Positions 9,224-61,758 of a stretch of DNA of 64,000 bases are shown piece after piece (positions within the stretch are counted from its first letter, which is position 1; every line of letters starts with the position of its first letter). Made by a program: the position numbers and the translations under genes. This stretch comes from an uncultured Gammaproteobacteria bacterium (lineage in GTDB: Bacteria > Cyanobacteriota > Vampirovibrionia > LMEP-6097). The notes under the pieces were generated by a model that had not been told where the DNA came from, did no database searches, and saw nothing but the letters and a program-made list of their open reading frames with translations. The DNA lies in NCBI GenBank assembly GCA_964551925.1, contig CAZKFA010000001.1, positions 16,281 through 80,280 on the forward strand. The letters run 5' to 3'.

Positions 9224-9235
9224 GATCAGCTCCCC

Positions 9236-11122: not shown

Positions 11123-11435
11123 GGAACATTGTTTGTAGCTTCATTGCAAGATTCATATCACCCTTGATTTTGAGCTTACCTTGCATAAATGCCATTTGAG
11201 AATTAAGTTTACCTTCACGAATAGCCATCCAGTCTTTATCGGCTAGAGCAATTTCAACAGAAGGAGTTGGTACTCCACCTTTGATTAAATTACAGACTCC
11301 ATTTTCAATTTTGAATGCCCAGATTCCGCCTTCTGGTCCAGAAATATTGAACTGATAAGTAGCATTTATACCACTAGCTGCTTTGGGGTTGAAATGTTTT
11401 AACATTTCATCAAATACATCACCGATTTTTACCAT
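11112..11435 (-). CDS. SCP2 sterol-carrier-like domain protein
   Basis: 107 aa; 'FKIENGVCNLIKGG...KLNSQMAFMQGKLKIKGDMNLAMKL' matches the SCP2 fold signature. Confidence 0.6.
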   Translation of the reverse strand: MVKIGDVFDEMLKHFNPKAASGINATYQFNISGPEGGIWAFKIENGVCNLIKGGVPTPSVEIALADKDWMAIREGKLNSQMAFMQGKLKIKGDMNLAMKLQTMFPIA

Positions 11436-41146: not shown

Positions 41147-41476
41147 TTGATGTACGAAAATGAATTTATAGTGTTAGATAAAGTAAAAGTGTCGGATTTA
41201 TTAAATAGATTCTTGGAAAATTGTCAGGAACTGTCAGAAAGAAGTACTGATGATTATACTTTATCCTATGTGGCAGACACGGTTGCAGCTATTTATTATT
41301 ACCGTGAGTACGATTCTTGTGAGAGTTTCTTGCAAGCTAATACTGATGCTATTGATGATGAGCGAGCAGAGTGGGTCAGGTATATGTGGCGTACCCTTAA
41401 CTCTATGGATGATGTGCAGAGAGCAGAAGTGGTAATAGAGTCATTGACTCAATTACCAGCTGTCTCAGGTATATAA
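41147..41476 (+). CDS. Hypothetical small acidic protein
   Basis: 109 aa; GGGAGG upstream; divergent from the NSP-repeat gene. Confidence 0.35.
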   Translation: MMYENEFIVLDKVKVSDLLNRFLENCQELSERSTDDYTLSYVADTVAAIYYYREYDSCESFLQANTDAIDDERAEWVRYMWRTLNSMDDVQRAEVVIESLTQLPAVSGI

Positions 41477-42507
41477 TGCTCTATTAAATTAAAGACTTTG
41501 TGTTTGAGTTCTTCAGCGCTGCTTGCTTCTGTATTGAAGCCAGCGGCTCTGGAGTGACCTCCACCATTGAGTTGTGTCGCAAAGCTAGAGCAATCGAAGA
41601 AGTCCACTGAACTGCGTAAGCTACCTTTGAAGTGTCCAGGTATTCTCGCTTCGCGTAGGTATAAGCAGAGATCTAAACCTTTAATGCGCATGATGTGGTC
41701 GACAATCTCGTCGGTATCTTCGTCTTTGGCACCGAGGCTTTGGAGATCTTCTTTGCTTGTATAAGTGTAAGCAATTTTAATTTGTTGCTTACCATATTTA
41801 AGTTCACTAATAGTTAGGCGACTTAATGCCGTGCCAATGATTTTGATAGCACGGAAGGGTATTTGGTTGAATAATTGGTTGTGTAGGTTGCTTGGATTGG
41901 CTCCGAGCAATGTTAATTCCTGAGCCCATTTGAAGACGTTGGCGTTGGTATTGCTGTGGCGAAAACCACCAGTATCTGTGAGTAAGGTTATATAGTACAA
42001 GCTTGCTAAGTCAGCATCTGTCGTGATTTGTTTTGGTAGCATCTCTGCTAAGCAATTTACGACTTGTCCAGTGCAAGTAGCATCGGGATCAACGAAGTTA
42101 AGGTCGCCATAAAGTGGATTAGAAAGATGATGATCTATATTGCATTTGGTCTTGGCGCGTTTCCAGATATCCCCAGCACTAGCTAATCGAGCGATAGAGC
42201 CGCAATCACAGCTAAAACTTATATCATAACTTTCTAGTAAACCAGACGGGTTTTGTGATGAGATAACCTTTTCTTGGTCTGGAAAGAATTTGTAAATTTC
42301 TGGAACGGTGTCATGCATGACTCTGTCTACACGCCGGATACCTGCTTGCTCTAGTACTTTTGCTAGAGCTAACATTGAAGCTAAGGTATCACCATCTGGG
42401 TTGACGTGAGCAAGAACGACAGCGGATTGAGCCGTCATAATCTTCTCAACCATGATTTTGCTCTGAATAGTACTTTGGGATTGAATTAATTCTTTGCTTA
42501 GAACCAT
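41449..42507 (-). CDS. nrnA: DHH/DHHA1 phosphoesterase (NrnA-like oligoribonuclease / pAp phosphatase)
   Basis: 'LAHVNPDGDTLASMLAL' DHH motif, C-terminal 'GGGHSRAAG' DHHA1. Confidence 0.75.
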   Translation of the reverse strand: MVLSKELIQSQSTIQSKIMVEKIMTAQSAVVLAHVNPDGDTLASMLALAKVLEQAGIRRVDRVMHDTVPEIYKFFPDQEKVISSQNPSGLLESYDISFSCDCGSIARLASAGDIWKRAKTKCNIDHHLSNPLYGDLNFVDPDATCTGQVVNCLAEMLPKQITTDADLASLYYITLLTDTGGFRHSNTNANVFKWAQELTLLGANPSNLHNQLFNQIPFRAIKIIGTALSRLTISELKYGKQQIKIAYTYTSKEDLQSLGAKDEDTDEIVDHIMRIKGLDLCLYLREARIPGHFKGSLRSSVDFFDCSSFATQLNGGGHSRAAGFNTEASSAEELKHKVFNLIEHYIPETAGN

Positions 42508-42525: not shown

Positions 42526-42580
42526 AGACTTGTCCCCAAATGGCTTATAACGCAGTTATAAGCCATTTGGGGACAAGTCT
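42526..42580. promoter_or_regulatory. Perfect 26-bp-stem hairpin (AGACTTGTCCCCAAATGGCTTATAAC-gca-GTTATAAGCCATTTGGGGACAAGTCT) in the divergent nrnA/mazG intergenic region
   Basis: Read directly; no mismatches in 26 bp; a second small palindrome agaattattct follows at 42583-42593. Confidence 0.8.
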
Positions 42581-42630: not shown

Positions 42631-43464
42631 ATGAGCGAAGCCTTCGATAAATTAAACGAAACTATAGCTGCGATCCGTGATCCGCAGACTGGTTGTGTTT
42701 GGAATCTTAAACAAGATCATAGTAGCCTTAAACGTTATTTACTTGAAGAATTATATGAAGTGCTCGAAGCGATAGATTCTTTAGATGCGACTACTGAGAG
42801 TTACTCTAACTTAGAAGAAGAGCTTGGTGATTTGCTTTTGCAAATAATCCTTCATTCTAAATTAGCTTCAGAGAAAGGATATTTTGATCTTGATGATGTC
42901 GCTCATAGATTGAACGAGAAGATGATCAAGCGTCATCCTCATGTCTTTGGTAAGGATAAGGCTGTAACTACTCAGGATGTCGATAAACATTGGGATAGAG
43001 AGAAGTCTAAAGAGAAATCAAGCCGTGAGTCTATCTTTGAAGGTATTCCGCGTGAGATGCCAGCACTCGCTCGTGCTTGGAAGATCTCTAAGAAAGCTGT
43101 TAAAGAAAGTTTTGAATGGGATGAAGAATATAAATTATTTGATCAATTGAAATCAGAACTTGCTGAGTTAGATGAAGTGGTAACTCAGGCAAGAGCCGCT
43201 GGTAATGATCCTTACAAAGATGGTTTTCTTGATGAGGCGCAGAGGCAGGCTGCTGAGCTTGAGCTTGGTGATATTTTATTTACTGTAGTCAACATTGCTC
43301 GTTGGTACAAGATTGACCCAGAGGATGCTTTGAGGCAAACTAACAATAAATTTGTGAAGCGTTTTGATGTGATGCAAAAACTTGCCAAGAAAAAGTTAAG
43401 TGAATATTCAATCGCTGAGTTAGAGGCTCTTTGGCAAGAGGCAAAGTGCAATATGCTAAAATAG
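42631..43464 (+). CDS. mazG: Nucleoside triphosphate pyrophosphohydrolase MazG (tandem MazG domains)
   Basis: 'EELYEVLEAID...EEELGDLLLQI' and a second 'ELGDILFTVVNIARW' EExxE motif. Confidence 0.85.
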   Translation: MSEAFDKLNETIAAIRDPQTGCVWNLKQDHSSLKRYLLEELYEVLEAIDSLDATTESYSNLEEELGDLLLQIILHSKLASEKGYFDLDDVAHRLNEKMIKRHPHVFGKDKAVTTQDVDKHWDREKSKEKSSRESIFEGIPREMPALARAWKISKKAVKESFEWDEEYKLFDQLKSELAELDEVVTQARAAGNDPYKDGFLDEAQRQAAELELGDILFTVVNIARWYKIDPEDALRQTNNKFVKRFDVMQKLAKKKLSEYSIAELEALWQEAKCNMLK

Positions 43465-45682: not shown

Positions 45683-45686
45683 AATG

Positions 45687-45936
45687 GACTTGTTGCGAAA
45701 ATCGCCCATAGCTGCGTTGCGCTCGTCCTCAGAATTACGGGGGCTTCATTTAATATTGAAGCATTCAGTAAAATTGACCCCTGAACATTGACGGGTAGTC
45801 AACTCAGCTTCCTCGTCCTCGCAAGCCTTACGAGGGGATCGTTATCTACAATCTCGGCTAAGAATGGAAGCCCCCGGAGCATCAAGAATAATTGCTTTGC
45901 AATTATTCGCAGATAGAACGATTTTCGCAACAAGTC
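45687..45936. mobile_element. MITE-like 250-bp element bounded by perfect 18-bp terminal inverted repeats (GACTTGTTGCGAAAATCG ... CGATTTTCGCAACAAGTC), GC-richer than its flanks, with internal nested hairpins
   Basis: TIRs read directly; internal gggggcttc/gaagccccc and cctcg...cgagg stems; no ORF of its own. Confidence 0.45.
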
Positions 45937-45945
45937 TAATATAAG

Positions 45946-46113
45946 TTACTTAGCAAACTTATTAAACATGACCATTTTAGTACTTTCTTGATTAACTTGT
46001 TTCTCGGCTTCACGCAGTTCGTCGATTTCCGTTGCCATTGCTAGAAGCTGCTCATTGATTAGCTTTGGGTCTATTTGCCAAGATTTGGCGTCGATAAATT
46101 GTAAGTCTTTCAT
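45946..46113 (-). CDS. Small hypothetical protein (55 aa) translationally coupled (ATGA overlap) to the 3' end of the 627-aa gene
   Basis: AGGAG 7 nt upstream of the ATG; ATG overlaps the TGA of the upstream gene; 'MKDLQFIDAKSWQIDPKLINEQLLAMATEIDELREAEKQVNQESTKMVMFNKFAK'. Confidence 0.35.
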   Translation of the reverse strand: MKDLQFIDAKSWQIDPKLINEQLLAMATEIDELREAEKQVNQESTKMVMFNKFAK

Positions 46114-47993
46114 TGTTTGGCTCCTAAGTTTTGGAATAATTCTGTGATTGCATTTAAAATTCTCTCCAATATCGCAGTAAAATTAGCATCTTGAGATATG
46201 CTGCGCACTAGAGTTTGAGCTCGTGCTTGTTGGGCTTCTCTTGCTTCTTGTCTTTCAAGCTTACTAGCTTTGTTTGATACTGGTTGAGCAGAGATTTTCC
46301 AAGTAAAACGAGTAACTTCACTTGCTAAATTGCCTTCAATATTATCATTAGCAGCTTTAACTTGACGATCTATCCAAAGTACTCTATCAGCTACTTTATC
46401 AATTTCTGTCAAACGATTACCAGCACTGAATTGTGAATCAATGTGATTTAATCGGATCAATTCTACTGTTGGGTATCCACTAGTAAGATTTAATTCTTTA
46501 CACATAAAATCAATTGCAAGATTTTGGTAAGTTGAATTTTGAGTTTGTTTTGTTATTTTTTGATATAACCTTAAGACAGCTGCTGTCTTAAGATCATCAT
46601 TATCACTTGATAGTAATTCGATAATACTAGGATTAGCATCAATAACTCTACGCAGTAGATCCTGAGTGGGATTAGTGATTAGAGTTGTTGCATCAGCGTT
46701 TTTGATTGCTGTTAATTTACTTAGTAATTGAGTATAATTTGCTCCGTCAAAAAGATTTGTAGTACCTGTGTTTCTTCCAAGAATATCGTCAGATATATTT
46801 TTTAAATGGTTCAAGGTGTCACTTCTGATAACGTCAACCGTGCGAGAATTGATTGGATCATCAGGACATTGACTCTCATAAGAGCTAATAATTTGACTAT
46901 GATAATGATTTTTTAATCCTTCAATGTCGGTTTTAATTTGAGCTAGAACACCTTCTACAAGAGTCTTTTGACTAGATTCATCCATAAAACGATCGATTTG
47001 TTTAGTGAGTCTTGCTTGTGGATCAAGAATGGTCGGGTGCTTGAGTATAGCTAACATTAACTGTTGTTGCTCGTCCGCTTTTCTTGCTTGTTGCACATCA
47101 CCTTTTTGGAAGGCTGCAATCTTTTGTGTTTGAAGATGTTTATAAGCATCTAAGAAATCTTTTATAGCCTCATGTTTGTCGCCTGTTATAAATTTATCAA
47201 CGAATAAATCAAAAGTAAAAATTTGTTTATTAGGAACAATAACAACTTTTTTAAAAGTACGATCAATAACTTCCGCGCCAAGCTTGACTGATGGTGGTAC
47301 TGTAATGCCTCTTGCTATGCCGGTTTGTGCTATTAAGCGCTGAGCAGCAGCGGCTTGGAAAATAGCAGATCCGTTTCCTTCCGTTAATACTTTATTCTCT
47401 GCTTCTGATAATTTTGTACGTAATTCTTGTGTAGTTGCTTTATCAACTAAGACTAAACTATGCATGAAGGTCAATGCTAGTTCGCTATCACCAAGCATAT
47501 GGTGAGCTTCTTTGACATCAAAATCACCAAACTTTCTGAAAGGTTCTAGCGCACCGATATCTATTAATTTCTCTGGATCATTCGTTGCATTATAAGCTAC
47601 AATCGCATCAATTTTGGCAGGATCAAGCTTTGTTGTTTTTAAATATGCAGCAGTAGTTGCAATGGCAGCTTTTTTAATCTCTGGATCACCAGAGAGTAGT
47701 AATTCACGAAAAGCTTTAACGATGGTTTTGTCTTCTTTTGCTTTATCAGTAAGAAAAAATTTCTTATCACCTGTGGCAATTTGTTCTTGTAAAACTTTTA
47801 AAATTGGTAAAAGTGTCTCACTGTCTTGAGCGGTGGCAGCTTTAGCAAAACTTGTTTTCAGGCTATCAAGACTAAGAGTTGTAGCGCGATTAGTGCCTTT
47901 CCACCATGATTTTAATTGAGCTAATTTCCCTTGAGTTTGAATTGGACTTGGGGTGTCGCCAATTTTTGCTGGTGTAAATGCTGTAAGTGACAT
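46110..47993 (-). CDS. Large hypothetical protein (627 aa), no recognisable domain, no signal peptide or TM
   Basis: Long uninterrupted ORF with coding-like composition; orphan. Confidence 0.55.
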   Translation of the reverse strand: MSLTAFTPAKIGDTPSPIQTQGKLAQLKSWWKGTNRATTLSLDSLKTSFAKAATAQDSETLLPILKVLQEQIATGDKKFFLTDKAKEDKTIVKAFRELLLSGDPEIKKAAIATTAAYLKTTKLDPAKIDAIVAYNATNDPEKLIDIGALEPFRKFGDFDVKEAHHMLGDSELALTFMHSLVLVDKATTQELRTKLSEAENKVLTEGNGSAIFQAAAAQRLIAQTGIARGITVPPSVKLGAEVIDRTFKKVVIVPNKQIFTFDLFVDKFITGDKHEAIKDFLDAYKHLQTQKIAAFQKGDVQQARKADEQQQLMLAILKHPTILDPQARLTKQIDRFMDESSQKTLVEGVLAQIKTDIEGLKNHYHSQIISSYESQCPDDPINSRTVDVIRSDTLNHLKNISDDILGRNTGTTNLFDGANYTQLLSKLTAIKNADATTLITNPTQDLLRRVIDANPSIIELLSSDNDDLKTAAVLRLYQKITKQTQNSTYQNLAIDFMCKELNLTSGYPTVELIRLNHIDSQFSAGNRLTEIDKVADRVLWIDRQVKAANDNIEGNLASEVTRFTWKISAQPVSNKASKLERQEAREAQQARAQTLVRSISQDANFTAILERILNAITELFQNLGAKQ

Positions 47994-48029
47994 ACTAGTT
48001 ATATAAAGCTATGAGTTATTGGTTTTTGA

Positions 48030-48050
48030 TATTTACTATACAGTGTATAA
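48030..48050. repeat. Iterated palindrome copy TTTACTATACAGTGTATAATGA; its right arm forms an extended -10-like TGTATAAT
   Basis: Read directly; lies in the divergent promoter region between the 627-aa gene and the small membrane-protein gene. Confidence 0.7.
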
Positions 48051-48096
48051 TGAATGAAAATACCTAAGATTATTGTGCTCTTAGAGAGAAGGTTTA

Positions 48097-48117
48097 CTTA
48101 CTATACACCGTATAATA
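48097..48117. repeat. Iterated palindrome copy (variant core TATACACCGTATA); the reverse complement of its central 19-mer is identical to the copy at 56834-56852
   Basis: Read directly; TATAAT-like right arm. Confidence 0.65.
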
Positions 48118-48192
48118 AGATATCGTAAATTTTTAATATCAGTTACCATTTGACCCTCTTGATTATAGTTAGCAAATAGTACAATCCCTTCT

Positions 48193-48441
48193 GTGAGCTT
48201 ACCAAGAGCAAATTATCAAAAAATGAGAGCTGAGATATATAAGGTTATAGGCTTTGGACTCTGGACTCCATTCGGTTCAATGATGGTAAATCTGGTTATT
48301 AGTCAGCCCAGTAATTTTGACATCAAATTTTTTGTGTATCTATTAGCAGCATCAATTTTACTCCCGCTTGGCGGACGTTTTCTTGACATTGCGGTAACAA
48401 TAATATACGATACGGATGAGGAGAGATCAGATGCAAGTTGA
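48193..48441 (+). CDS. Small membrane protein (2 TM), paralog of 57259-57501
   Basis: GTG start (or ATG at 48223); '...AEIYKVIGFGLWTPFGSMMVNLV' vs paralog 'AEVLKTIGFILATPFGINALNLL'. Confidence 0.5.
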   Translation: MSLPRANYQKMRAEIYKVIGFGLWTPFGSMMVNLVISQPSNFDIKFFVYLLAASILLPLGGRFLDIAVTIIYDTDEERSDAS

Positions 48442-48562
48442 TAATGAATCTATAAATTGGATTGCGATTATTTGCGTAGCCTTATTACCTGCCCCATTAG
48501 CTTTGTTGTTTATGCATAACTTTCGCGACAAAACTCTAGAGAAGAGTAAGAAGCTTAATTAA
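48431..48562 (+). CDS. Very small membrane peptide (43 aa), start overlapping the stop of 48193-48441 (ATGcaagtTGA); analogous to 57124-57290
   Basis: GAGGAG 8 nt upstream; 'MQVDNESINWIAIICVALLPAPLALLFMHNFRDKTLEKSKKLN' has one TM; found by manual translation, since it is below the ORF-track length cutoff. Confidence 0.3.
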   Translation: MQVDNESINWIAIICVALLPAPLALLFMHNFRDKTLEKSKKLN

Positions 48563-48563
48563 A

Positions 48564-48998
48564 TTAATTCTGCTTACTAATCCGCAATAGTGCTAGTTCA
48601 GAGCTTTTCATCAATCCAGTTGGAATAGCAGCACCCGCTTCAGCTTGCTCTGCTTCTGCTAGCTCGCGTTCGTATTGTGTGTAAATAGCCTCGCTCTCAG
48701 CAAAATATTCTTCGTTACGTTTAGCTTGTTCTATAAGATCGCTAACGTCAAGAGTGCCATCGTGCAAAGCCTTGATAGTAGTTCTCACTTGCTCATTAGC
48801 ACCAAGGTAAATTTGTTTCAACTCTTCTCTCACGAAATCAAGATCAAGATAGAAATAAAGATTGCGCAACATCTCGCATCGGAACCAGTTGGATTTGGTC
48901 TTCACGATCGAGTCAAGAATAAATCTAGCATTGTCTTTGCGACGCTGTTCGTCACGACTGGCTGCTAGATTGGTGTTGTGGAGATATGATTTATTCAT
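48564..48998 (-). CDS. Hypothetical protein (144 aa), 22 bp downstream of the 860-aa gene, likely co-transcribed
   Basis: ORF with a charged C-terminal Ala/Glu-rich segment. Confidence 0.45.
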   Translation of the reverse strand: MNKSYLHNTNLAASRDEQRRKDNARFILDSIVKTKSNWFRCEMLRNLYFYLDLDFVREELKQIYLGANEQVRTTIKALHDGTLDVSDLIEQAKRNEEYFAESEAIYTQYERELAEAEQAEAGAAIPTGLMKSSELALLRISKQN

Positions 48999-49020
48999 GA
49001 TTATTTAAGCAGAGTTTATA

Positions 49021-51603
49021 TTAAAGAGACAAGGCTTGGGATTGATATGACCGATTTGGTGCAGATCTTTCTGTTAATGCGATACTTTGAGGTCTTTCCA
49101 TTAGATTGTGTATAAATTGCATCAAGGACATCAATAGTCTGTTAATAATGATAGCAAATGGTTGATTGTCGTCAGCATCTTGGAAATAAGGTGATTCCTT
49201 GATAACTTCTTGTAAGAGTTTGGCGTTTCTAGTGTCCAAGCCCATGGCTTCTAAAGCATGTCCCAGGCGTTTCTCGTAAGTGCTTTGCCTGCTAAGCTTT
49301 GTTGCTTGAATTTCCCACGATTCACTAAAGCCTTTTTTACTTGGCGTGTTTAGGGTATTGAAAAATATTAATTCTCTTTTGATATGATCGATATCAGTTC
49401 TTAAATTTAGGGCTCTATGAGTTTTGGCTGCTAGATCGGGGGTGACTAGAGCTGCAAGTCCAGTGATACCAATGTGTGATTCTAAAGTATTTAGCTTCGT
49501 TGTGATTGTACTAGAGCTTGATTGTGACCTCTCGTATTCAAATACATTTGCTAATTGTCTGTAAGCAGAGGCTTGACGACTAATGTATTCTTTTATTTGT
49601 GCTGCTAAATCTTTTCTGTTCTTGAGATCCTCACCATCAGCAGGTAGTGGATCACGGACATGATTAGTGATTAATTCAAGTGCAGCCTTAGCCGAGCTTG
49701 CGACGCTTGTAAAATTACTTGCTTTTGGAATTTGTGAGTTGAAATTATTAACTATTCGAGTTAAGGCAGTATTAAGTTCTACCCTTTCTGTATCAGTTAA
49801 ATTTAACTCTCTGAGAGCATCTTGAGGAATGAAATACTCACCATCGTCACCTTCTTTCTTCTCAATGAAACGATTGATTAGCCTTTCCGCTGCTCCTTGA
49901 TAGGCTCTTACGGCTTTTTCTGCAATATCAACTCTTGAAGTTTCTTGACAAAAGCTGCTTAAGTGAGTAAATACTCCAGCAGTACGAGTAGTATCAAATA
50001 TAGTCTCTGAATTGATTATAGAATATAATGGTTGCCAAAAACTTGTTTCAAGTTTAGTTTGCTCAGCTTCAAACCTATTTAAAATTTCTTCTTTTGCACT
50101 AATCTGACCTTGTAAGTCGCGCTTAAATTGAGCTAGGCTACTTAGATTCTCTTTGTATAAACCAGTAGCAGAAGCATCGACAAAATCTTGCTTAAATAAT
50201 TCTTCGAAATCATAATTACCATCGTGACCTTGGCTTGTAAGAAATTGCATAAAGCGATTCTTTAAACCATCAAGACTATCATCATTAGAGTCTTCTGTAG
50301 TTGCCGCATGCGGTACGTCAAATAAACGCTCAAAGAACAAATTTTTTATACCGGCAGCTGAGTTGTTGATTCTGATATTATCAAAAGCCAATTTGACCGC
50401 GGCTAACTGCTTATGAAAAGCATATTCGTCTTCGGTTAATTTCTTTGTTAGTCTGGTAATTTCTTCAGTTATTTTAGTAAGATGTGTTTGACTAGCATCG
50501 ACAACTAAAGTCTGTAGACCAGGATTCGTAGCTTGTTCTGCCGCTGTACATAAATTGCTATCTAAGTCAATTGGAGAGTGGGATTTGACTTTTTGTGTAA
50601 GTTCTGCAAACTTGTCTTTAAGTCTATTGAGTTGTACTGTTGTTTCATTAAGAGGCTCCATTTCTTTATGTAACAATTCAAGTAAATTTTCTCTTGCAGT
50701 TTTGATAGAGCAGCCTCTCTCTGAACTCTCTTCATGAGCCACGATAACGCCGTGAACAGCTGTTACTAGATCGTTATTAGCTCTCATTGGAGTAGGCATA
50801 CCAGCTAAGAATAATTGTCCTAAGGCTTGAGTATATTGTTGACGTATATTTGGACTAAGATCTAGATCTGGATTTAATAACCTATTTGGATTGCTAATAA
50901 GTTCTTTGATACTAGTCTCCAGTCTTGCTCTGACTACTAGACCTACTTCTCCATGAAACTTATCACCAATAGTATCTAGTAAATTAGCAACTGTTTCAGA
51001 TACATTTAATTTCTTCTGGCTTTTGTTTGCGATCTCAACAAGCAAAAGCGCTGCAGCAGTGGCGCTGCGGGCTTGAGCATCATAGTCATCAGAACCTGAG
51101 TTGCTCACTATATCTACGATATAAGTTGGACAAGCGCTACTAAACCAAGCTCTTTGTTTAGCGGCTGCTTCAATTGCAGTGCTGATGAGCTCTTGAGTAG
51201 CATTCCTTATATTTGATGGAACTTCTTGATTGTTTGATAATTCGATTAATTTAGCAAGTAAACCGCGATCATTAATTAAAACGGCTTCTTTATTAACGAC
51301 TCCGTCACGATGAAGATTAGTTGCTAAATCTACAAATAAGCGTTTAGCATCGTCTATAGTTACTGAGGCTCCATGGGGATCTTGTAACCAGATTTGATTG
51401 TCCTCGTGAATTAAGTCGTTTTTTAAAGTTGTAGCAGCGTCTAGAGCAGCGTTGTGTATTGGATCTTGAGATTCGAGACCAACTACCGCTTGAATAGTAG
51501 AACTGCTTGCTCGAGCTACTTTGCGAGCAGTGTTACCAAGAGCTTCATGACCTGTGTACCAGGCATTGCGACATTTGTCTTTTATAGCATCAACTAAATA
51601 CAT
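49021..51603 (-). CDS. Large hypothetical protein (860 aa), orphan, soluble
   Basis: Long ORF; no motifs recognised. Confidence 0.55.
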   Translation of the reverse strand: MYLVDAIKDKCRNAWYTGHEALGNTARKVARASSSTIQAVVGLESQDPIHNAALDAATTLKNDLIHEDNQIWLQDPHGASVTIDDAKRLFVDLATNLHRDGVVNKEAVLINDRGLLAKLIELSNNQEVPSNIRNATQELISTAIEAAAKQRAWFSSACPTYIVDIVSNSGSDDYDAQARSATAAALLLVEIANKSQKKLNVSETVANLLDTIGDKFHGEVGLVVRARLETSIKELISNPNRLLNPDLDLSPNIRQQYTQALGQLFLAGMPTPMRANNDLVTAVHGVIVAHEESSERGCSIKTARENLLELLHKEMEPLNETTVQLNRLKDKFAELTQKVKSHSPIDLDSNLCTAAEQATNPGLQTLVVDASQTHLTKITEEITRLTKKLTEDEYAFHKQLAAVKLAFDNIRINNSAAGIKNLFFERLFDVPHAATTEDSNDDSLDGLKNRFMQFLTSQGHDGNYDFEELFKQDFVDASATGLYKENLSSLAQFKRDLQGQISAKEEILNRFEAEQTKLETSFWQPLYSIINSETIFDTTRTAGVFTHLSSFCQETSRVDIAEKAVRAYQGAAERLINRFIEKKEGDDGEYFIPQDALRELNLTDTERVELNTALTRIVNNFNSQIPKASNFTSVASSAKAALELITNHVRDPLPADGEDLKNRKDLAAQIKEYISRQASAYRQLANVFEYERSQSSSSTITTKLNTLESHIGITGLAALVTPDLAAKTHRALNLRTDIDHIKRELIFFNTLNTPSKKGFSESWEIQATKLSRQSTYEKRLGHALEAMGLDTRNAKLLQEVIKESPYFQDADDNQPFAIIINRLLMSLMQFIHNLMERPQSIALTERSAPNRSYQSQALSL

Positions 51604-51648
51604 TACATATATATAACGAAGTCTTAACCTATTTTTTGATGGTTAAAT

Positions 51649-51680
51649 AAAAAAAAAGACCCTAATTTAGGGTCTTTTTT
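51649..51680. terminator. Bidirectional intrinsic terminator: A9 - GACCCTAATTTAGGGTC - T7
   Basis: Read directly; 48 nt after the stop of the 999-aa gene (minus strand). Confidence 0.8.
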
Positions 51681-51702
51681 GCGTATATTCTAAGTATCTT
51701 GT

Positions 51703-54702
51703 TTATGCAACTGTTGTAGGACTTGCTTCTGAACTTGGTCTAGGGCTAGTTTCGAGAGTTGTTTTACCCATTCTTTGATTGATTTCCATGGTGGCACTTT
51801 TCAAAGCAGCTAAGAAGCCAGTGTGTTCATCAGCTTCTGGAATCGCAGCGACTCGCTTTTGGAAGTCAGCTACAGCTTCAACTTTCTCAAGTCCAAGGAA
51901 TCTCATTGTCATAGTCAAACCATTTTTTACGGAATCTTTTAATTTGGAGAGAATCTTTTTAACAGCAGAAGAGTTCTTCTCTCTATCGTATAGATCCCAG
52001 ACATCAGTGAGTTCTGAGCTTTCAGGAAAAGCTTTAACTTCATCTTCTAGTCTATTAATTTCGTTGGCATGCTTAATATCAAAACTCCGTTTTGTAGCTC
52101 TGATATCGGTTAATACTTTTGAACTTAGGCTCGTGACTAGAGTGTTAGCACTGTTTAGCAAATCCTTCAGCTTTTGATCTAATTTCTCAGGTTTCTTTTC
52201 ATTAGTTTCTTTGAGCTTAAGAAGAGTTTCGGTGATTAAGCGAACTCTGCCTAGTTGTACCTTGGCTCTATCGAAAGGAGGTAGTGAATTGTCTTTGCTT
52301 GTATCCAAAAGCTCAGAGTCTTCCGTACTGAATTTAATTAGTCCATCAAAAGCTTTACCCTCTTTTAAAGTAGTATGGAAATGTTCCAGAGCTGTTGATT
52401 GAGTCTGACCCCAATTCTGTAACAAAGTTATAAAGCCATTATAATCTTGTGTTCCACCAATAGAGAGTGCTTTAACACTACTTGTTACAGCATCTATTGC
52501 TGCATTAGTTGCTGTTAACTTGGCTGTTTCTAATTCTTGTTCAGCTTTAAGTTTTGCAGATTCAATTTCTGCTCTACAAACTTCAGCTTGTGCCTTAAAT
52601 CCATTTCTGAATTCATCATCAAACTGACCATTCTCGTCAAGCATCGAATCTACTAGATATTTAGCAGCTGTTGCGTTGACGGTGCGAGCTTTGGTTAGAA
52701 TTGGTTTAATGACTGAGTTTGCCATAAGTTCAACAAACTTAGCTTCACTTTTAGCTTCTTCTTTAGCTTTTTTAACTTTGTCGGTCGCTAGAATTTTGAG
52801 GCTCTCAGCTATTTTTTTAGAGTCATCGTCTTTTACTGTCAAAATCCAAGTGCTTTGTATTTTGAGAACTTCAGCAAGTTTCTCAGCAGCAGAGAGAGTA
52901 GTCTGATCAATATCTTTAACTGCTTTTGCCGTTGTTAACTGTTTGTCTCTTTCAGCATTTGCTTTATCAGTTAGATTTTGACGAATTGCATTGACATAGT
53001 CTGCAGTAGTTGCTTCTTTTTGTGCGGCAGTAACTGCTGCATCAATAGTATTTTTCGCGGCTGTTGCTTCAGTAAGTTTGGTATTAGCTTCATCAAGCTT
53101 AGCCTGTGCCTCAAGAATAGCTTTATCTGCATTTGCAATAGCGGTTTGCTCGGATGCTGTTAGATTATTTGGATCGGCTGGGGCTGCTAGGTTTGCTTTA
53201 GCTTGATCGGCAGCTTGTTTAGCTTGATCGGCAGCTTGTTGAGCTGTAGTTGCTGCATCAAAAGCCGCTTGGGTAGTAGTTTGCTCTGCTACTAACGCAT
53301 CCACATTTGCTTTAGCGGGAGCTGCTGTTTTCCAATCTACTGCTGTAGTAGCGTTACCATTTGGACCTATAGCTTCTCTTATTTTTTCAACTTGTTCTTT
53401 ATTTAAGGTTGGATTTAATCCTGAGCCTGCTGGTAAGTACCTGCTGATATCAAGAGTATTACCTGCTGCTGGGATTGATAGTATGGCTTCTAAGTTTCTC
53501 TTGCCAATTTCTACAGGGTTAGCCGTATTATTTGCAAGAATTGCTTTTGATTGTTTGACAACATCATCATAGAAGGATTGTTCAAGCTTAGTATTCCCTG
53601 AGATGAAAGAAGTACTAATCTTTACCGCTGTACCACCTGCTTTGCCAGAGTTTCTGATAGCAGTACTTAGAGAACCTTCAAGGTTTTTGTATTTGAGTGC
53701 ATCAGCTTCTTTCTGAGGTCCTATCATAGCAGCAGTATTTAGGAAATCTGTCAGAGCATAAGCTGCTTCTTTGGCTTCTTCTTCGCTAGAGGCTTTGAAT
53801 AAAGTTTCTAATTTTTCAAGAAAGTCAGCTAGAAAAGTTTTTTGTGCTGCAGTTTTAGCATGCTTTTCAATAGCCTTGGCTCCGTCTTTAAGGACATCGA
53901 CTGAGATCTTTTCGAATATCTCACCTTTTAATTCTGTAACTTGTGATTTGATTGATTCAAGCCCATCTCCTAGTGTTTCTAGTGGTCTTTGAGCAAGCGA
54001 TTGAACTTTGAGATAAACGTGATTGGCAAGAGCTTTGCCAACAGCACCATAACTTCTTGATAGTTTACCAATGAAACCAGTCTTTGGATTTGATAATTTC
54101 TCCAAACCTTGAGATCTAATTAAATCAACAACATTGCGCAAAGATGTTTCTGGATTGGCATCTAAGATACCAAGTATCATATCTTTTTGTTCGGGTTCTA
54201 TTCCACTTGACGGGAAGGAATCAATTGCTGTGACCAATAAGTCTCTAACATCTCCTTGAATAGGTTTGAGGTATTCACCATTACTATCTTCGTCTCGCAT
54301 TCTTAAGATTGCAAATAAATCTTCCAAGACTTTTGCTTGTTTGTAAACTATAGCGTTGCCTTTAGGGCTAGCTGATTTTAAGTTGCCAGAAAGACCTGCT
54401 AAGATCTCCTCATAAGCTCTTTTTGCTTTAGGTCCAAATTCTACTTCTACTCCACCTGTTAATTCTTTGAATTTATCATCAGGATCAGTTTCGGTTTTAT
54501 CTTTGCTTCTATATTCTTCTGTATTTTTGAGTTCATCTGCTGCTTTGAATTTCTCAGCAAGTGCGTCAATAGGGTCTTCTTTTGATTTGCCACCTGGCTT
54601 GGTTGCTCGGAGGTAAGCTGCCACATCGGCTTTAGTTAATTTAGTAGGAGCTTCGGTTGCTCTTTCTATTAAAGGTTTTGTTTCTATTACTTTTACTACC
54701 AT
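51703..54702 (-). CDS. Large hypothetical protein (999 aa) with a long Ala/Lys/Glu/Thr-rich predicted coiled-coil central region
   Basis: Long ORF; '...AQKEATTADYVNAIRQNLTDKANAERDKQL...' heptad-like; no signal peptide. Confidence 0.55.
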   Translation of the reverse strand: MVVKVIETKPLIERATEAPTKLTKADVAAYLRATKPGGKSKEDPIDALAEKFKAADELKNTEEYRSKDKTETDPDDKFKELTGGVEVEFGPKAKRAYEEILAGLSGNLKSASPKGNAIVYKQAKVLEDLFAILRMRDEDSNGEYLKPIQGDVRDLLVTAIDSFPSSGIEPEQKDMILGILDANPETSLRNVVDLIRSQGLEKLSNPKTGFIGKLSRSYGAVGKALANHVYLKVQSLAQRPLETLGDGLESIKSQVTELKGEIFEKISVDVLKDGAKAIEKHAKTAAQKTFLADFLEKLETLFKASSEEEAKEAAYALTDFLNTAAMIGPQKEADALKYKNLEGSLSTAIRNSGKAGGTAVKISTSFISGNTKLEQSFYDDVVKQSKAILANNTANPVEIGKRNLEAILSIPAAGNTLDISRYLPAGSGLNPTLNKEQVEKIREAIGPNGNATTAVDWKTAAPAKANVDALVAEQTTTQAAFDAATTAQQAADQAKQAADQAKANLAAPADPNNLTASEQTAIANADKAILEAQAKLDEANTKLTEATAAKNTIDAAVTAAQKEATTADYVNAIRQNLTDKANAERDKQLTTAKAVKDIDQTTLSAAEKLAEVLKIQSTWILTVKDDDSKKIAESLKILATDKVKKAKEEAKSEAKFVELMANSVIKPILTKARTVNATAAKYLVDSMLDENGQFDDEFRNGFKAQAEVCRAEIESAKLKAEQELETAKLTATNAAIDAVTSSVKALSIGGTQDYNGFITLLQNWGQTQSTALEHFHTTLKEGKAFDGLIKFSTEDSELLDTSKDNSLPPFDRAKVQLGRVRLITETLLKLKETNEKKPEKLDQKLKDLLNSANTLVTSLSSKVLTDIRATKRSFDIKHANEINRLEDEVKAFPESSELTDVWDLYDREKNSSAVKKILSKLKDSVKNGLTMTMRFLGLEKVEAVADFQKRVAAIPEADEHTGFLAALKSATMEINQRMGKTTLETSPRPSSEASPTTVA

Positions 54703-57120: not shown

Positions 57121-57123
57121 GCT

Positions 57124-57290
57124 TATTTTTTCTCAACTTTCTGAAATAGTTCGGGATAGCGTTCACTGGGCAAGGTCCAAAATCTACTTTTGGTAATGCC
57201 AAAAGCGACGCTTGCTAACATAGCACCAGCAAATAACGGACCAAAGACATCAGCCCAGTTAGCGCAAATGTAATCTATTAATTTCTCCAT
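57124..57290 (-). CDS. Small membrane peptide (55 aa) whose start overlaps the last 30 nt of 57259-57501; analog of 48431-48562
   Basis: GGAGGA 5 nt upstream; 'MEKLIDYICANWADVFGPLFAGAMLASVAFGITKSRFW...' (NW plus TM as in the other copy); found by manual translation. Confidence 0.3.
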
Positions 57291-57501
57291 CTATTTCCTC
57301 CATTAAGCCAAGAGAGCGGTTTACAAGTACGTAAGCGGGTAGTAGTAAAGCACTAGATATAATCCAACCAAGAGCCAGATTAACAGTGGAGTGAAAACCT
57401 GTCAATAGATTCAAAGCATTGATTCCAAATGGAGTAGCCAATATAAACCCAATGGTTTTGAGAACTTCTGCTTTATGCTTAAATTGCTGAAAACTTTTCA
57501 C
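57259..57501 (-). CDS. Small membrane protein (2 TM), paralog of 48193-48441
   Basis: 'MKSFQQFKHKAEVLKTIGFILATPFGINALNLLTGF...' shares the N-terminal motif with the other copy; transcribed divergently from the 1367-aa gene. Confidence 0.5.
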   Translation of the reverse strand: MKSFQQFKHKAEVLKTIGFILATPFGINALNLLTGFHSTVNLALGWIISSALLLPAYVLVNRSLGLMEEIDGEINRLHLR

Positions 57502-57654
57502 CCATTGAACTGTAAATCATAAGGAATAAATTTAGGAGGGTCAACCGGTAACTAGTCTAATCGACCTAGGTTAAGGCTAGGTTAAGAGATTCTTTGTCAA
57601 AAAGCATATATAGAAGTGGTTCTACTGGTATCTGGGCTTCTAAGGTAATAATAT

Positions 57655-60600
57655 ATGCAAATAACTCAACACAGAATGGTACGGGAAGCTGCTGATGGAA
57701 ATGGAGCAGAGAAAGATCTTGGAACGATCCATGTTTCAGATCAAGTAATTGGTGATAGCTTGATGCAAGCACTCTCTCCTTTTAATAAAGATTTTTTTTC
57801 TGGAGCTCTTAATCCTGCTAACGCCTATTGGTCTGGAGGCGCTGTTGATAAAGGTGATTATGTGTACAAGCTTGATTTAACTGAGGCTGATAAGAAGAGT
57901 GGTGGTAAATTCGGAATAGTATTTCAAGATCAGTTTGCTCATAATCAATCTATTGCATTTGTGTTTTCTATTGTTGACGGCAAGTTAATTATTTCAAAAA
58001 GTAAATTAGTTGATGATGCTAGTGGTCCTGACTTTGGTGGGGCTAAGGACTCATATCAAGATACTTATGTTGCAATATCTCATGCTCTTCATGGTAGTGA
58101 TAGCGAGAAAACAAAATATACTTTGAATTTTGAAGATGGAATTGATGCAGAAGAAGAGAAAATAATTAAATATATTACGGCTTATGCAAATCTGGATGTT
58201 AAAGCTAATCCACATCTTAAAAATATAATATTAGAATCTAGAGCTTTGATTAAAGACCACTTGGATACTGCGATGCTGAAGGTTAAACAAGATCCAAGCA
58301 AAATCTCTGAGTACATTGATTTGGTCAAATCTTATAAAAATTCTGGTTTATCTAAATTAAGTGAACAAACAGTTCGACAAAATGGACAGTCTAGTAATTA
58401 TAATACTCACTTAAATTTAGTTGATAATATTTTATCTACAGAACCAACGCAATTCGGTGCATTAGTAAGATTTCATCCGTATAGTTTAGATAGAGTTAAG
58501 ACTGTTGATGATCTTGTAGTCAGAGAGCTTTTGATAAGAGCTTTAAGAACAGGTAATTTGTCAAGTGGAAATTTGGACGGATTGGATACTGCCTTGAAGA
58601 CTGTGGTTGATAAGTATTTAGATATTGCTGCTGCAGGTATGAACGTAGCTGATAGAGCTACTAAGCAAGCTGAGCTTCTTAAACAAGTGAAAGATTATAT
58701 AGAGCCATATAAGAATAAGACTGCTAGTGATTTTACGGAACTTATAAATAATCCTGATAGTTTTAATAGGTTCTTCGCGTTTTTGCAAGTCTCGCAAAAC
58801 GACAAGATAGAAGCCAATCTTAAGCTTCTAACACAAGAGCTTACTGAGCTATTAAGAAAAGAAACAAATTTAACAAAAAAAGATCAGCTTGTTGATAAGT
58901 ACAAGAAACTTCTTGTTCAATATGGAGCCTTTTTTGCTGGATCAGGAACTGCTGATATTGATAAATTGGCAATTGATTCAACTAAGTTAAGCGACTCATC
59001 AAAACACCAACAAATATTCAATGGCTTTATGACTCTCATTAGAACAAAGCAAGAGGCGCGTATTGAGCATAAGGTTAATTCCGATAACTATAAGAATATT
59101 GGAGCTAACATAAGTTCAATGTTAGGACACACTCTAGTTGCTGGAGATGAGCTGAGCTTTGAATATGATGCTGCCACTAAAACATTCTACGTAGCTGCTA
59201 AGCATGCTGTAGCATCAGGCAGTACGAAAGCTTCTGACAAACTTAAATACACTATGCTTGCTGTGAAAGTTAATGATGATGGTACTTTGACTGCAGTGAG
59301 GTCTGAAGAGGGTGTTACTAGGTCTTATAGCGATCTCAAAAAAGAATTAATTACTAAGTTAGCTGATCCGAATGCTAAGAAAAGTAATGTTAGTCACACA
59401 GACTTCGTTAAACTATATACAACTATTGATCATACAGAGGTAAATGAATTAATAACTAGCCTTGTTGATAAAATTACCGTAGCTAATGTTAGTGATTCAA
59501 AAATTACTGCTTTGATATCAGCTTTAAGCTCTGCTAAAGACCAAGAGAAGGTTAAGATCCTTATGCAGAGTAAGTTTGATGCTTTAATCAAGGATTGTAT
59601 TTTATCTAATCCGCCAACTAATGACCAGAAAACTAAACTTACTAATATTTGGAATAAGTTTAAGGCATTTTATCCAGCTACAGCTCCGGAAACTTTGAAG
59701 AAAGTATTTAAGGATTTGATTGATACTGTGCATGCTGATGTTGTTGCTGTTGTTGCTGTTGGCACGGTTGCCCCTGTTGATAATTCTGCAAAGAGAGCTC
59801 TGTTAACGACAATGTTAGACACAAAATTTGCCAAAGTTGCTGATGTGAATATTTCTACAATTATAAATGCGATTATGGCTGGTGAAGCCACAACTAACCC
59901 AACTACTCCAAGTCCTAGCCCGAGCGTGGCACCTACTGTAGATCTAACTACTTTAACTGCTTCCACCCCAACAAATATTATTGCCAATATGAATACCGCT
60001 CTAGAAGGGATTTACAATCAAGGTGTCGCCAATCAGCCAGAGCGTTTGAGATATCTAGCTAGAGAGTTGGCGTTTGATACTTTAGATGCGCATGAAAGAA
60101 CCGAGTTAGCTAATATATTGAGATTCCATGCTAAGGATGATGAGAAGCGTAATATAGCGGGGTTAGTAGATGAATATTTAACTGCTTTAGATAAAGTAGA
60201 TACTAATGAAACTAGGTTAGGAGTATCGTTTGAGAAGGCTAATGACAAAGTTTCTTTTGCTGCTGATGTAACTAAGGAGATAGAATTATTTAATACATTA
60301 CTTAGTAAACTTTCTGATTCTACTTGTGATGATCCACTTTCTAGTTATTTTAATTTCAATGCGCAAGAATTGCGTCAATTGACAACTAAAGCTGCTCCTT
60401 TGCCGCGGTCAGTAATTACTAAGCTTGATACAATCAAGTCAGAAACTGGCATTGATATACGCCAAGCATTTAAAGATTCCAAAATTGATATCAATTCTGG
60501 TGAGGGCAAAGCTCTACTACAAAGATTATTTGAGGCTGCTAATAAGACTATTAGGAGGGAAGCAGCACCAGAGATCCAAGTGGCGGCAGGTGAAACTCTT

Positions 60601-61758
60601 GGTGGTCCACAACTTGCTTTAGAACTACTTTATATGACTAAATACAACCCATTAGTCAGAGCACAAGCTGTAAACACCAGAAAGTTTCTTGATTTCTTTA
60701 ATAACCCGGATGCTATTAATGGACCGCAATTTGCAAGTGCTATTGACGCCGAGAGACAAATACACTTAGCTCAAGTATTGATGATGTACCAATCGCCAAT
60801 TGAAGAACATATGACTAAACCCACTCTGGATGCTGCAAGGACAATCTATGAGCAGATTCCAGGCGAGGTGTTTAATTACAAACAGACTCCACAATTCTTT
60901 ATGCATGAGAATGGACAACCAGTTCTTAAGAAGATATATAAGCTTGGAGATAAGGCTAATCTGGTGATGCCATTAGCGGCTAATATACGAGTCTCTGGTA
61001 AAGAAGCTGATAAGAATTTCTCAGTTGAAGGAGATAACTTAGCTCTCAAGGCTATTCTTGAAGCCACTGGTGTGATTCCAGTTGGTGATGAAGAAAAATT
61101 CAGTAATTTTATTCAAGGATTTGCAACTAAGAACGCTGAAGGAGAATATAGCTTTGATAGGCCGGCTCAAGAACGTTTGGCAACTGAGCTTGCTAGAATA
61201 TTACCTTCTTTCGTTGAGACTTATAATCGCTTCAGTAGTAAAGAACCAGCTAATGATAATGAAAGAACTCAATTCGCTAAAGCAAAGACTGTTATAGACA
61301 AGCTTCTAGAGGTACAAGGGTCTTCTACTATATTGAGCGTTGAGACTGGCTATATCAAGATTAGTTTTGATGAATTCTTAGATAGTTTTACAAACTTTGT
61401 AACTAATATGAAGGCTTATAGAGATGTTAATGAGGCTGATATTCCAGATCCATCAATATGGTCTCAAGGTTTGCCAGGAGGCTACAATACTTCTGGAACT
61501 CCAATACCATTCAATGACATCTATGCGGCTTGGAGAGATAATAATAGAAACTTTAGTTTTAATAAATATATTTCCATGCAACAAGTTGCAACTGATCTAC
61601 CTATGAATAATCCTTGGTATCGCTACGCCACAGCTACTCCCGAGGAACAAGGTCAAATGAATCAAGATATTAATGCTCATCTTCGAGCTCAGACTGGTTA
61701 CTCAACATGGCGCCAGGCTAATACTCAGCCAGTGGCAAATAGATCTTTTCACGTTTAA
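57655..61758 (+). CDS. Very large hypothetical protein (1367 aa), orphan; contains a Pro/Thr-rich linker (~aa 740-770: TTNPTTPSPSPSVAPTVDLTTLTASTPTN)
   Basis: Long ORF, soluble, multi-domain appearance; no motif recognised. Confidence 0.55.
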   Translation: MQITQHRMVREAADGNGAEKDLGTIHVSDQVIGDSLMQALSPFNKDFFSGALNPANAYWSGGAVDKGDYVYKLDLTEADKKSGGKFGIVFQDQFAHNQSIAFVFSIVDGKLIISKSKLVDDASGPDFGGAKDSYQDTYVAISHALHGSDSEKTKYTLNFEDGIDAEEEKIIKYITAYANLDVKANPHLKNIILESRALIKDHLDTAMLKVKQDPSKISEYIDLVKSYKNSGLSKLSEQTVRQNGQSSNYNTHLNLVDNILSTEPTQFGALVRFHPYSLDRVKTVDDLVVRELLIRALRTGNLSSGNLDGLDTALKTVVDKYLDIAAAGMNVADRATKQAELLKQVKDYIEPYKNKTASDFTELINNPDSFNRFFAFLQVSQNDKIEANLKLLTQELTELLRKETNLTKKDQLVDKYKKLLVQYGAFFAGSGTADIDKLAIDSTKLSDSSKHQQIFNGFMTLIRTKQEARIEHKVNSDNYKNIGANISSMLGHTLVAGDELSFEYDAATKTFYVAAKHAVASGSTKASDKLKYTMLAVKVNDDGTLTAVRSEEGVTRSYSDLKKELITKLADPNAKKSNVSHTDFVKLYTTIDHTEVNELITSLVDKITVANVSDSKITALISALSSAKDQEKVKILMQSKFDALIKDCILSNPPTNDQKTKLTNIWNKFKAFYPATAPETLKKVFKDLIDTVHADVVAVVAVGTVAPVDNSAKRALLTTMLDTKFAKVADVNISTIINAIMAGEATTNPTTPSPSPSVAPTVDLTTLTASTPTNIIANMNTALEGIYNQGVANQPERLRYLARELAFDTLDAHERTELANILRFHAKDDEKRNIAGLVDEYLTALDKVDTNETRLGVSFEKANDKVSFAADVTKEIELFNTLLSKLSDSTCDDPLSSYFNFNAQELRQLTTKAAPLPRSVITKLDTIKSETGIDIRQAFKDSKIDINSGEGKALLQRLFEAANKTIRREAAPEIQVAAGETLGGPQLALELLYMTKYNPLVRAQAVNTRKFLDFFNNPDAINGPQFASAIDAERQIHLAQVLMMYQSPIEEHMTKPTLDAARTIYEQIPGEVFNYKQTPQFFMHENGQPVLKKIYKLGDKANLVMPLAANIRVSGKEADKNFSVEGDNLALKAILEATGVIPVGDEEKFSNFIQGFATKNAEGEYSFDRPAQERLATELARILPSFVETYNRFSSKEPANDNERTQFAKAKTVIDKLLEVQGSSTILSVETGYIKISFDEFLDSFTNFVTNMKAYRDVNEADIPDPSIWSQGLPGGYNTSGTPIPFNDIYAAWRDNNRNFSFNKYISMQQVATDLPMNNPWYRYATATPEEQGQMNQDINAHLRAQTGYSTWRQANTQPVANRSFHV

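Follow-up and report, generated by a model that had tools for sequence, protein, structure and literature searches.

Small membrane proteins are systematically missed by annotation. The DNA analyzed here, positions 16,281 to 80,280 of contig CAZKFA010000001.1 (64,000 nucleotides (nt), hereafter the window), is a low-GC (38%) chromosomal stretch in which a gene for a two-helix membrane protein (gene A) twice overlaps a gene for a single-pass peptide (gene B). We consider it moderately likely that each locus is a self-contained, translationally coupled two-gene cassette whose products form an A:B membrane complex, and that the cassette is multi-copy, fast-evolving and independent of the giant open reading frames (ORFs) beside it; a leaning toward an antagonistic role forms part of this account.

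Class II holins, or pinholins, with their antiholin (as in phage 21 S21 68/71) resemble A in size (~70-90 amino acids (aa)), in having two transmembrane (TM) helices, in a predicted N-in/C-in topology, and in a charged C-terminal end. They resemble the cassette also in that a second small membrane protein is made from an overlapping message. However, neither sequence nor profile searches linked the cassette to a holin family, and none of the 13 modules described below has an endolysin or spanin gene or a phage context nearby. The partner in the cassette is a separate single-pass gene, whereas that of S21 is a dual-start isoform. Finally, A has a conserved motif, whereas holins are very diverse, and the cassettes are chromosomal and multi-copy.

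The type I toxins Hok/Mok, Ldr, Ibs, TisB, and Fst are like B in being single-pass peptides of less than ~60 aa (31-58 aa for B) with a charged tail. Type I loci are, like the cassette, multi-copy and stand-alone with conserved promoters, and translation of B appears to be coupled to an overlapping upstream frame as that of hok is to mok. In contrast, the upstream frame of the cassette is more than a leader ORF in that it encodes a conserved two-TM membrane protein, the sequence gives no sign of an antisense RNA, and there is no Rfam match. A consensus scan gave one antisense promoter-like site in the second A copy (57458-57485), which is within chance expectation.

AcrZ, KdpF, CydX, MgtS, and MgrB are likewise very small conserved inner-membrane proteins that annotation often misses, and they bind larger membrane proteins. 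Those are single genes, usually single-copy and often located in the operon of the partner, whereas here a two-gene cassette occurs in arrays with no recurrent partner gene. TcdE, which serves in the holin-like export of the large clostridial toxins TcdA/TcdB (other such secretion depends on a holin and an endolysin), is a small holin-like membrane protein beside very large proteins without an evident signal peptide, and the two window loci have this appearance. However, the adjacency of cassette and giant is not kept in relatives, no peptidoglycan hydrolase was recognized nearby, and there is no TcdE-type holin homology. The kind of arrangement is a familiar one, namely a translationally coupled small-membrane-protein operon that is possibly antagonistic. 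To judge from the libraries searched, neither the A family nor its partner peptide or promoter box has been described before, and a literature search found nothing relevant to the A/B cassette.

Gene A encodes a predicted helical hairpin

The first copy of gene A (A1, 48193..48441, + strand) encodes an 82-aa two-helix membrane protein and the second (A2, 57259..57501, - strand) one of 80 aa. Both open with GTG, and A1 has no ribosome-binding site. The first-pass annotation of the window, made from the sequence alone, had called the two proteins paralogous, and this was borne out by 37% identity across 49 aa (E = 8e-9 for the pair). A family hidden Markov model (HMM) run on the window ORFs returned A1 and A2 at E ~1e-27 to 1e-31 with the next-best ORF at E = 0.04, so no third A copy was found by this model in the 64-kb window.

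An AlphaFold2 (AF2) model of A1 built from the family alignment is a helical hairpin of residues 5-36 and 44-81 with a mean predicted local distance difference test score (pLDDT) of 83.7, and the hydropathy profile of A agrees with it. The family shares the motif K-[FY]-[RK]-A-E-x-x-K-x-x-G-F-x-L-x-T-P-[FL]-G-x-x-x-L-N, which runs into helix 1 and is followed by the second hydrophobic helix. The N terminus of A is basic, and the C-terminal tail is net acidic in 8 of 13 modules. On this model, A would lie N-in/C-in in the membrane with its basic N terminus in the cytoplasm. Charge complementarity between the A and B tails was dropped as evidence since only those 8 A tails are acidic and the acidity is partly forced by the embedded ribosome-binding site of gene B.

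The GTG start of A1 is supported because its N-terminal SLPRANYQK resembles the N termini TSPKANYKK and KHARSNYDK from a related locus with tandem modules (L019). A1 has an in-frame methionine at position 11; a second start this close to the N terminus is absent from A2 and from most relatives.

Gene B overlaps the end of gene A in every module

B1 (48431..48562, + strand) encodes a 43-aa single-pass peptide and overlaps the A1 stop by 11 nt (ATGcaagtTGA); its ribosome-binding site, GAGGAG at 48418..48423 on the + strand, falls within the last codons of A1 and is separated from the ATG by 7 nt. B2 (57123..57290, - strand, ATG at 57290) encodes a 55-aa single-pass peptide, overlaps A2 by 32 nt, and has the ribosome-binding site GGAGGA at 57301-57296 (- strand), inside the 3' end of A2 and 5 nt before the ATG. 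The overlaps and ribosome-binding sites are those that had been claimed from inspection. B1 has another possible ATG at 48416, but this one lacks a ribosome-binding site, and the gene caller chose the 43-aa form in the contig of a near-identical strain (L001).

We compared 13 modules, comprising the genomic loci of ten relatives, their tandem copies included, and the two window copies. An overlapping B was present in 13/13; it is ATG-initiated, 31-58 aa long, and starts 4-32 nt before the A stop, with a ribosome-binding site of the GGAG/GAGG/AGGA type 5-9 nt upstream in every case. All 13 B peptides have one TM helix and a C-terminal tail rich in Lys and Arg, and the N terminus is net acidic in 11. 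As a control, 44 large window ORFs were treated in the same way: nine had an overlapping ORF of at least 31 aa, two of these had a ribosome-binding site as well, and none also had a TM helix. The B ORFs of two loci (L015 and L023) had been missed by gene callers. With the predicted hairpin of A and the single helix of every B, the predicted membrane topology agrees with the original view of both products as small membrane proteins, and the constancy of the A+B architecture strongly supports a coupled, functional membrane pair.

The sequence of B is far less constant. Sizes of 43 and 55 aa and a TM segment in both window peptides were correctly described at the outset, but a shared core was not confirmed: similarity between B1 and B2 is undetectable (BLASTP E = 7), and the residues 'NW' on which the core was based are limited to B1, B2, and the B peptide of the related contig L018. 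B2 is orthologous to this last peptide (E = 4e-9), and the C-terminal RDKT.E of B1 recurs in the B peptides of L019. Elsewhere among the B peptides the architecture alone is conserved, and B evolves fast. By the positive-inside rule B would lie N-out/C-in.

Within A1, at 48383-48411, there is a promoter-like TTGACA-17-TACGAT (10/12 consensus positions) that ends 20 nt short of the B1 start. B1 could be transcribed independently from this site, and the count of such sites is within chance expectation for the region.

A shared promoter box upstream of gene A

An 18-nt box, AGTTACCNNTTGACCCTC, stands exactly 34 nt before each window GTG; only 2 of 100 shuffles gave two or more matches. The copy upstream of A1 is AGTTACCATTTGACCCTC (48141..48158, + strand, with TTGACC at 48150-48155), and 16 of its 18 specified bases are identical upstream of A2, where the box is AGTTACCGGTTGACCCTC (57536..57553, - strand). 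The flanks of the two loci had been said to differ; for the most part they do, but this box is common to both. In nine of the 13 modules, the core T(T/G)GACC(C) starts 41-44 nt ahead of the A start codon, and the longer AGTTACC-NN-TTGACC is common to the window copies and the four modules of SRA run SRR23086380. In 168 kb of non-redundant sequence the strict form TTGACCCY is almost exclusive to the cassette upstream regions. A wider TTGACCCY regulon was considered and rejected, the only additional strict matches being in a structured element at 45774 and inside L005.

The box can be read in two ways. In copy 2, TTGACC-17-TATGAT (57544-57516) matches 10 of 12 sigma-70 consensus positions, and with the box as a -35 element the leader would be ~6-8 nt. 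In the tandem array of L022 (1-1472), which has at least three modules within 1.5 kb, each module is preceded by an 87-nt promoter repeat consisting of the box, 25 nt, the near-perfect extended -10 element TGnTATAAC, AAGGGGGA, and the ATG. If this arrangement holds in the window, the hexamers TACAAT/TACAGT, 24 nt after the box and 7 nt before the GTG, would give a leaderless message; the putative -10-like TACAAT of copy 1 is at 48180..48185 (+ strand). A strict claim of leaderless transcription from the -10 hexamer was not significant, and it is kept here only by analogy with L022. Under either reading of the box, A would have essentially no leader, and a ribosome-binding site before A is absent in the window-type loci.

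RNAalifold detected no conserved RNA pairs in the A upstream regions and these regions had no Rfam match, so a cis-regulatory RNA in the leader was rejected. Since no RNA structure is conserved there, the box is most likely active as DNA.

The intergenic region between A1 and the neighboring 627-aa ORF contains a 20-nt element twice, at 48035-48054 (ACTATACAGTGTATAATGAA) and 48100-48119 (ACTATACACCGTATAATAAG), 65 nt apart. Both include a TATAAT hexamer (+ strand) and a TATAGT hexamer (- strand). Measured from the box, the second copy stands where the L019 and L020 cassettes have their upstream TGTAAAATTAATT element.

A narrowly distributed and fast-evolving family

A filter-only HMMER scan of 1.84 billion protein representatives with the A1/A2 profile detected 15 further A relatives of 70-87 aa (E 4e-10 to 5e-4). 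The small ORFs are thus conserved in relatives, their absence having been named beforehand as a possible refutation. Other routes added little: in word-indexed protein searches, A1 alone and the A1/A2 profile matched nothing beyond the organism's own proteins, a metagenome-contig scan with the A1 profile returned nothing and another re-found only the locus L013, and the diversity of the broad alignment (A3) made it unsuitable for pattern scans. Among the curated families of Pfam, NCBIfam, PHROGs, and PADLOC, none was matched by more than one of 18 members, and all matches were below cut-off and scattered over unrelated families. A profile search of the PDB with A gave generic hairpins (best E = 0.37), as did Foldseek against the PDB (best E = 0.19). 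No relative was found in 2.9 million viral contigs, 50,697 phage genomes, or plasmids.

The cassette is restricted to a narrow clade of low-GC, Caenarcaniphilales-like Melainabacteria. The window TrmL is 72% identical to the TrmL of a 'Candidatus Caenarcanales' metagenome-assembled genome (MAG), and another match is a Melainabacteria MAG; these matches place the window organism as a Caenarcaniphilales-like member of the non-photosynthetic sister group of Cyanobacteria. The organism is also present in the runs SRR11632267, SRR7369912, and ERZ3430528. Only Logan or ENA gene calls contain the A genes. On a 91,454-bp contig, NCBI-sourced protein records exist for the 627-aa and 1367-aa ORFs that flank the cassettes and for B2 but not for A1, A2, or B1, and the source record probably does not annotate these three genes.

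Overall, family members are only 25-40% identical. The sample that contains L018 provides the closest relatives of both A1 (41% and 38%) and A2 (49%); that of A2, P0005 in L018, is 49-53% identical depending on the alignment. Because the nearest relatives of both copies share one sample, the duplication that gave rise to A1 and A2 is old, and by the same comparisons the A proteins evolve much faster than housekeeping genes.

Strain variation is concentrated in A1. The contig L001 is 99.76% identical to the window over 8995 bp, with 22 differences, of which 13 fall in a 46-bp patch of A1 (48279..48324, + strand). They affect 11 codons, giving 5 conservative amino acid changes and 6 synonymous-only codons, and span the outer end of helix 1 and the external loop. 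The patch resembles a short stretch that recombination has brought into a coding sequence under constraint, its source being a diverged allele or a paralogue not seen here. A2 was ruled out as the donor. Hypervariation of the diversity-generating retroelement type was rejected since the changes are not adenine-specific and 6/11 codons are synonymous-only.

The cassette is multi-copy and changes position

The neighbors of the cassette differ in every relative locus (nine inspected), and no recurrent neighbor gene was found among them. In L012 the cassette is next to trmL, as is copy 2 in the window, with the opposite cassette orientation. In L010 (10001-11739) rplD and rplW lie upstream, and a gene for a fliI-like ATPase of the flagellar/type III secretion system type starts 10 nt after B. 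A thioredoxin-like gene is the neighbor in L007, with a flagellar rod gene 3.7 kb upstream; loci other than L010 and L007 have no flagellar link. The remaining neighbors are SIMPL and S8 peptidase genes (L013), secD and rpe (L015), an aminotransferase gene (L018), a methionine gamma-lyase gene (L020), and pfkB and the deformylase gene def (L023). The trmL genes of the Caenarcanales MAG (L004) and the Melainabacteria MAG (L006) are followed by other genes, and no cassette is present.

Tandem copies are found in addition to the array of L022, in which one module consists of a degenerate A and two B-like ORFs. Two complete A+B modules lie within 1 kb in L019 (1-1025), with the conserved upstream sequence TAATTGAGC...TAAAATTAATT...CAGTTACCGTTTGACC, and one SRA run holds four modules. 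L018 is from a close relative of the window organism, its SCP2, polysaccharide-synthesis, and aminotransferase genes being 70-95% identical to window genes at 8075-11435. There an A2-like cassette stands beside the aminotransferase gene, and the window orthologue of that gene has no cassette. The cassette is multi-copy and positionally unstable.

Base composition does not set the region apart. The GC content is native throughout, and a genomic island defined by composition was rejected on this ground. The window also encodes SecA, RNase E/G, FtsH, acetolactate synthase, acetyl-CoA synthetase, ornithine carbamoyltransferase, ThyX, TrmL, SurE, and MurB.

Possible roles of the A:B pair

In the account that we favor, A would be transcribed from its own promoter, marked by the TTGACC(C) box 41-44 nt before the start, with a leader of ~0-10 nt and no ribosome-binding site, and its message would be leaderless or nearly so. 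B would be translated from the strong ribosome-binding site in the last codons of A, with translational coupling at perhaps ~1:1; that A and B would be made together is suggested by the start of B 4-32 nt before the A stop, behind the embedded site. The two proteins would most likely assemble as a small hetero-oligomer in the cytoplasmic membrane. The cassette duplicates, forms tandem arrays, and shifts chromosomal position between close relatives, and it would work independently of the adjacent giant ORFs.

As to what such a complex would do, we lean tentatively toward an antagonistic membrane pair, with one peptide that perturbs the membrane and a co-translated partner that restrains it. The pair would then be similar to a toxin with its antidote or a holin with its antiholin, and unlike a stoichiometric subunit of a core machine. 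We lean this way because the copy-number dynamics and fast evolution would fit a conflict-type pair and because B resembles small hydrophobic toxins.

Several observations weigh against this account. Neither A nor B is similar to a characterized toxin, holin, immunity, or accessory protein in the profile libraries or by Foldseek. The polar motif that A would present to the cytoplasm is strongly conserved, and a cassette next to trmL has been retained in the window as well as in the distant L012; both facts are more in keeping with a stable physiological partner protein than with a selfish module. At the promoter, TAnnnT at the -10 position is not above background (8/13 modules versus 22/50 control ORFs). 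The copy numbers per genome are those of metagenome contigs and one 64-kb window, not of closed genomes.

Nearly as likely as an antagonistic pair is the possibility that A and B are small accessory or regulatory subunits of a conserved larger membrane protein or complex, with the paralogues serving different conditions or partners. The charged motif K.RAE..K together with TP[FL]G has been kept in a family of such low overall identity, which suggests a conserved binding partner, and the substitution pattern in A1 is that of a constrained coding sequence. The trmL adjacency also favors this possibility, and the one promoter box common to all copies points to shared regulation. However, no membrane machine is a recurrent neighbor of the cassette, and tandem arrays and positional turnover are at odds with known accessory proteins, which are usually single-copy beside their partner.

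The adjacent giant ORFs

Each window cassette is transcribed divergently from a giant orphan ORF, as the first-pass annotation had stated: A1/B1 from a 627-aa ORF (46110-47993, - strand) and A2/B2 from a 1367-aa ORF (57655-61758, + strand). Neither has a family match. They belong to five lineage-specific ORFs (627, 144, 860, 999, and 1367 aa) that occupy 46110-54702 and 57655-61758, all of native base composition. None of the five matched Pfam, PADLOC, or PHROG families, and the 627-aa and 1367-aa ORFs also had no PDB or phage match. A single-sequence AF2 model of the 627-aa protein was almost all helix and unusable (pLDDT 47). The translations of all five are rich in helix-favoring residues, and on reading them no signal-peptide-like N terminus was seen; the 999-aa ORF has a stretch rich in Ala, Gln, and Lys that looks like a coiled coil.

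From this layout it had been proposed that a giant protein and a small membrane pair form a repeated unit. In this lineage the pair might serve the adjacent giants, which have no evident signal peptide, as a membrane anchor, a chaperone, or a TcdE-like, holin-like release gate. Such a service is suggested by the divergent intergenic region that both window copies share with a large orphan ORF, by the absence of a hydrophobic signal-peptide-like N terminus from the giants, and by the size and predicted topology of A, which are those of a class II holin. We regard it as unlikely. The proposal to ask what the family neighbors did yield a family, but a giant orphan neighbor was present in 0/9 relative loci. 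BLASTP found no similarity among the 627-, 860-, 999-, 1367-, and 144-aa ORFs, so the giants are not homologous to each other, and their origin as a duplicated module was rejected. No peptidoglycan hydrolase was recognized in the neighboring ORFs scanned (45.9-61.8 kb), and no profile match to a holin family was obtained. The tendency of lineage-specific genes to gather at the same permissive sites would account for the adjacency.

A more elaborate proposal is that the cassettes are new, all-protein antagonistic membrane pairs, each a two-TM 'gatekeeper' with a one-TM pore-former made from a box-driven leaderless message, which in this lineage have been recruited as release gates for the adjacent giants without evident signal peptides. 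This combination we hold to be distinctly unlikely.

It is very unlikely that the cassette is the remnant of a prophage lysis cassette (a holin with an antiholin or spanin): the sizes and topologies are generically compatible and one family member has a single weak match to a holin PHROG (E = 0.026), but the surroundings are housekeeping genes with no phage genes nearby, the searches of viral contigs and phage genomes were negative, the base composition is native, and there is no endolysin. That the small ORFs are chance reading frames is scarcely credible and, as far as sequence evidence goes, already refuted, for although both A genes start with GTG without a ribosome-binding site and A1, A2, and B1 lack the NCBI-sourced record that the neighboring giants and B2 have, remote members are conserved at E down to 1e-10, the B partner occurs in 13/13 modules against 0/44 controls, and the A1 patch has a coding-type substitution pattern.

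Other elements in the window

A 256-nt intergenic element that is richer in GC lies between convergent genes at 45685-45940. Its termini are perfect 16-bp inverted repeats (CTTGTTGCGAAAATCG), it contains nested stems, and RNAfold gave z = -5.7 for the + strand and -7.4 for the - strand, with none of 200 shuffles as stable. It holds the window's only TTGACCCC besides the cassette boxes. There was no Rfam match even at E <= 1, and the arms are not repeated elsewhere in the window. The element could be a structured non-coding RNA or resemble a miniature inverted-repeat transposable element. In addition, a perfect palindrome with 24-bp arms (GACTTGTCCCCAAATGGCTTATAAC-gcag-GTTATAAGCCATTTGGGGACAAGTC) is found at 42528-42579, between a DHH-family gene (41449-42507, - strand) and the MazG gene divergent from it (42631-43464, + strand).

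Implications

Melainabacteria are an uncultured sister group of Cyanobacteria in which, to our knowledge, almost nothing has been characterized experimentally. The analysis removes a tempting but unsupported link between the small membrane proteins and the giant orphan genes; were the cassettes release gates for the giants after all, Melainabacteria would have a holin-like secretion route. If the pair is antagonistic, the known small-toxin systems would gain a variant in which both partners are proteins embedded in the membrane, and if A and B are accessory subunits, they would point to a clade-specific membrane machine. The outcome is a concrete two-protein membrane system in Melainabacteria, defined by a protein family, an obligatory partner peptide, and a promoter signature.

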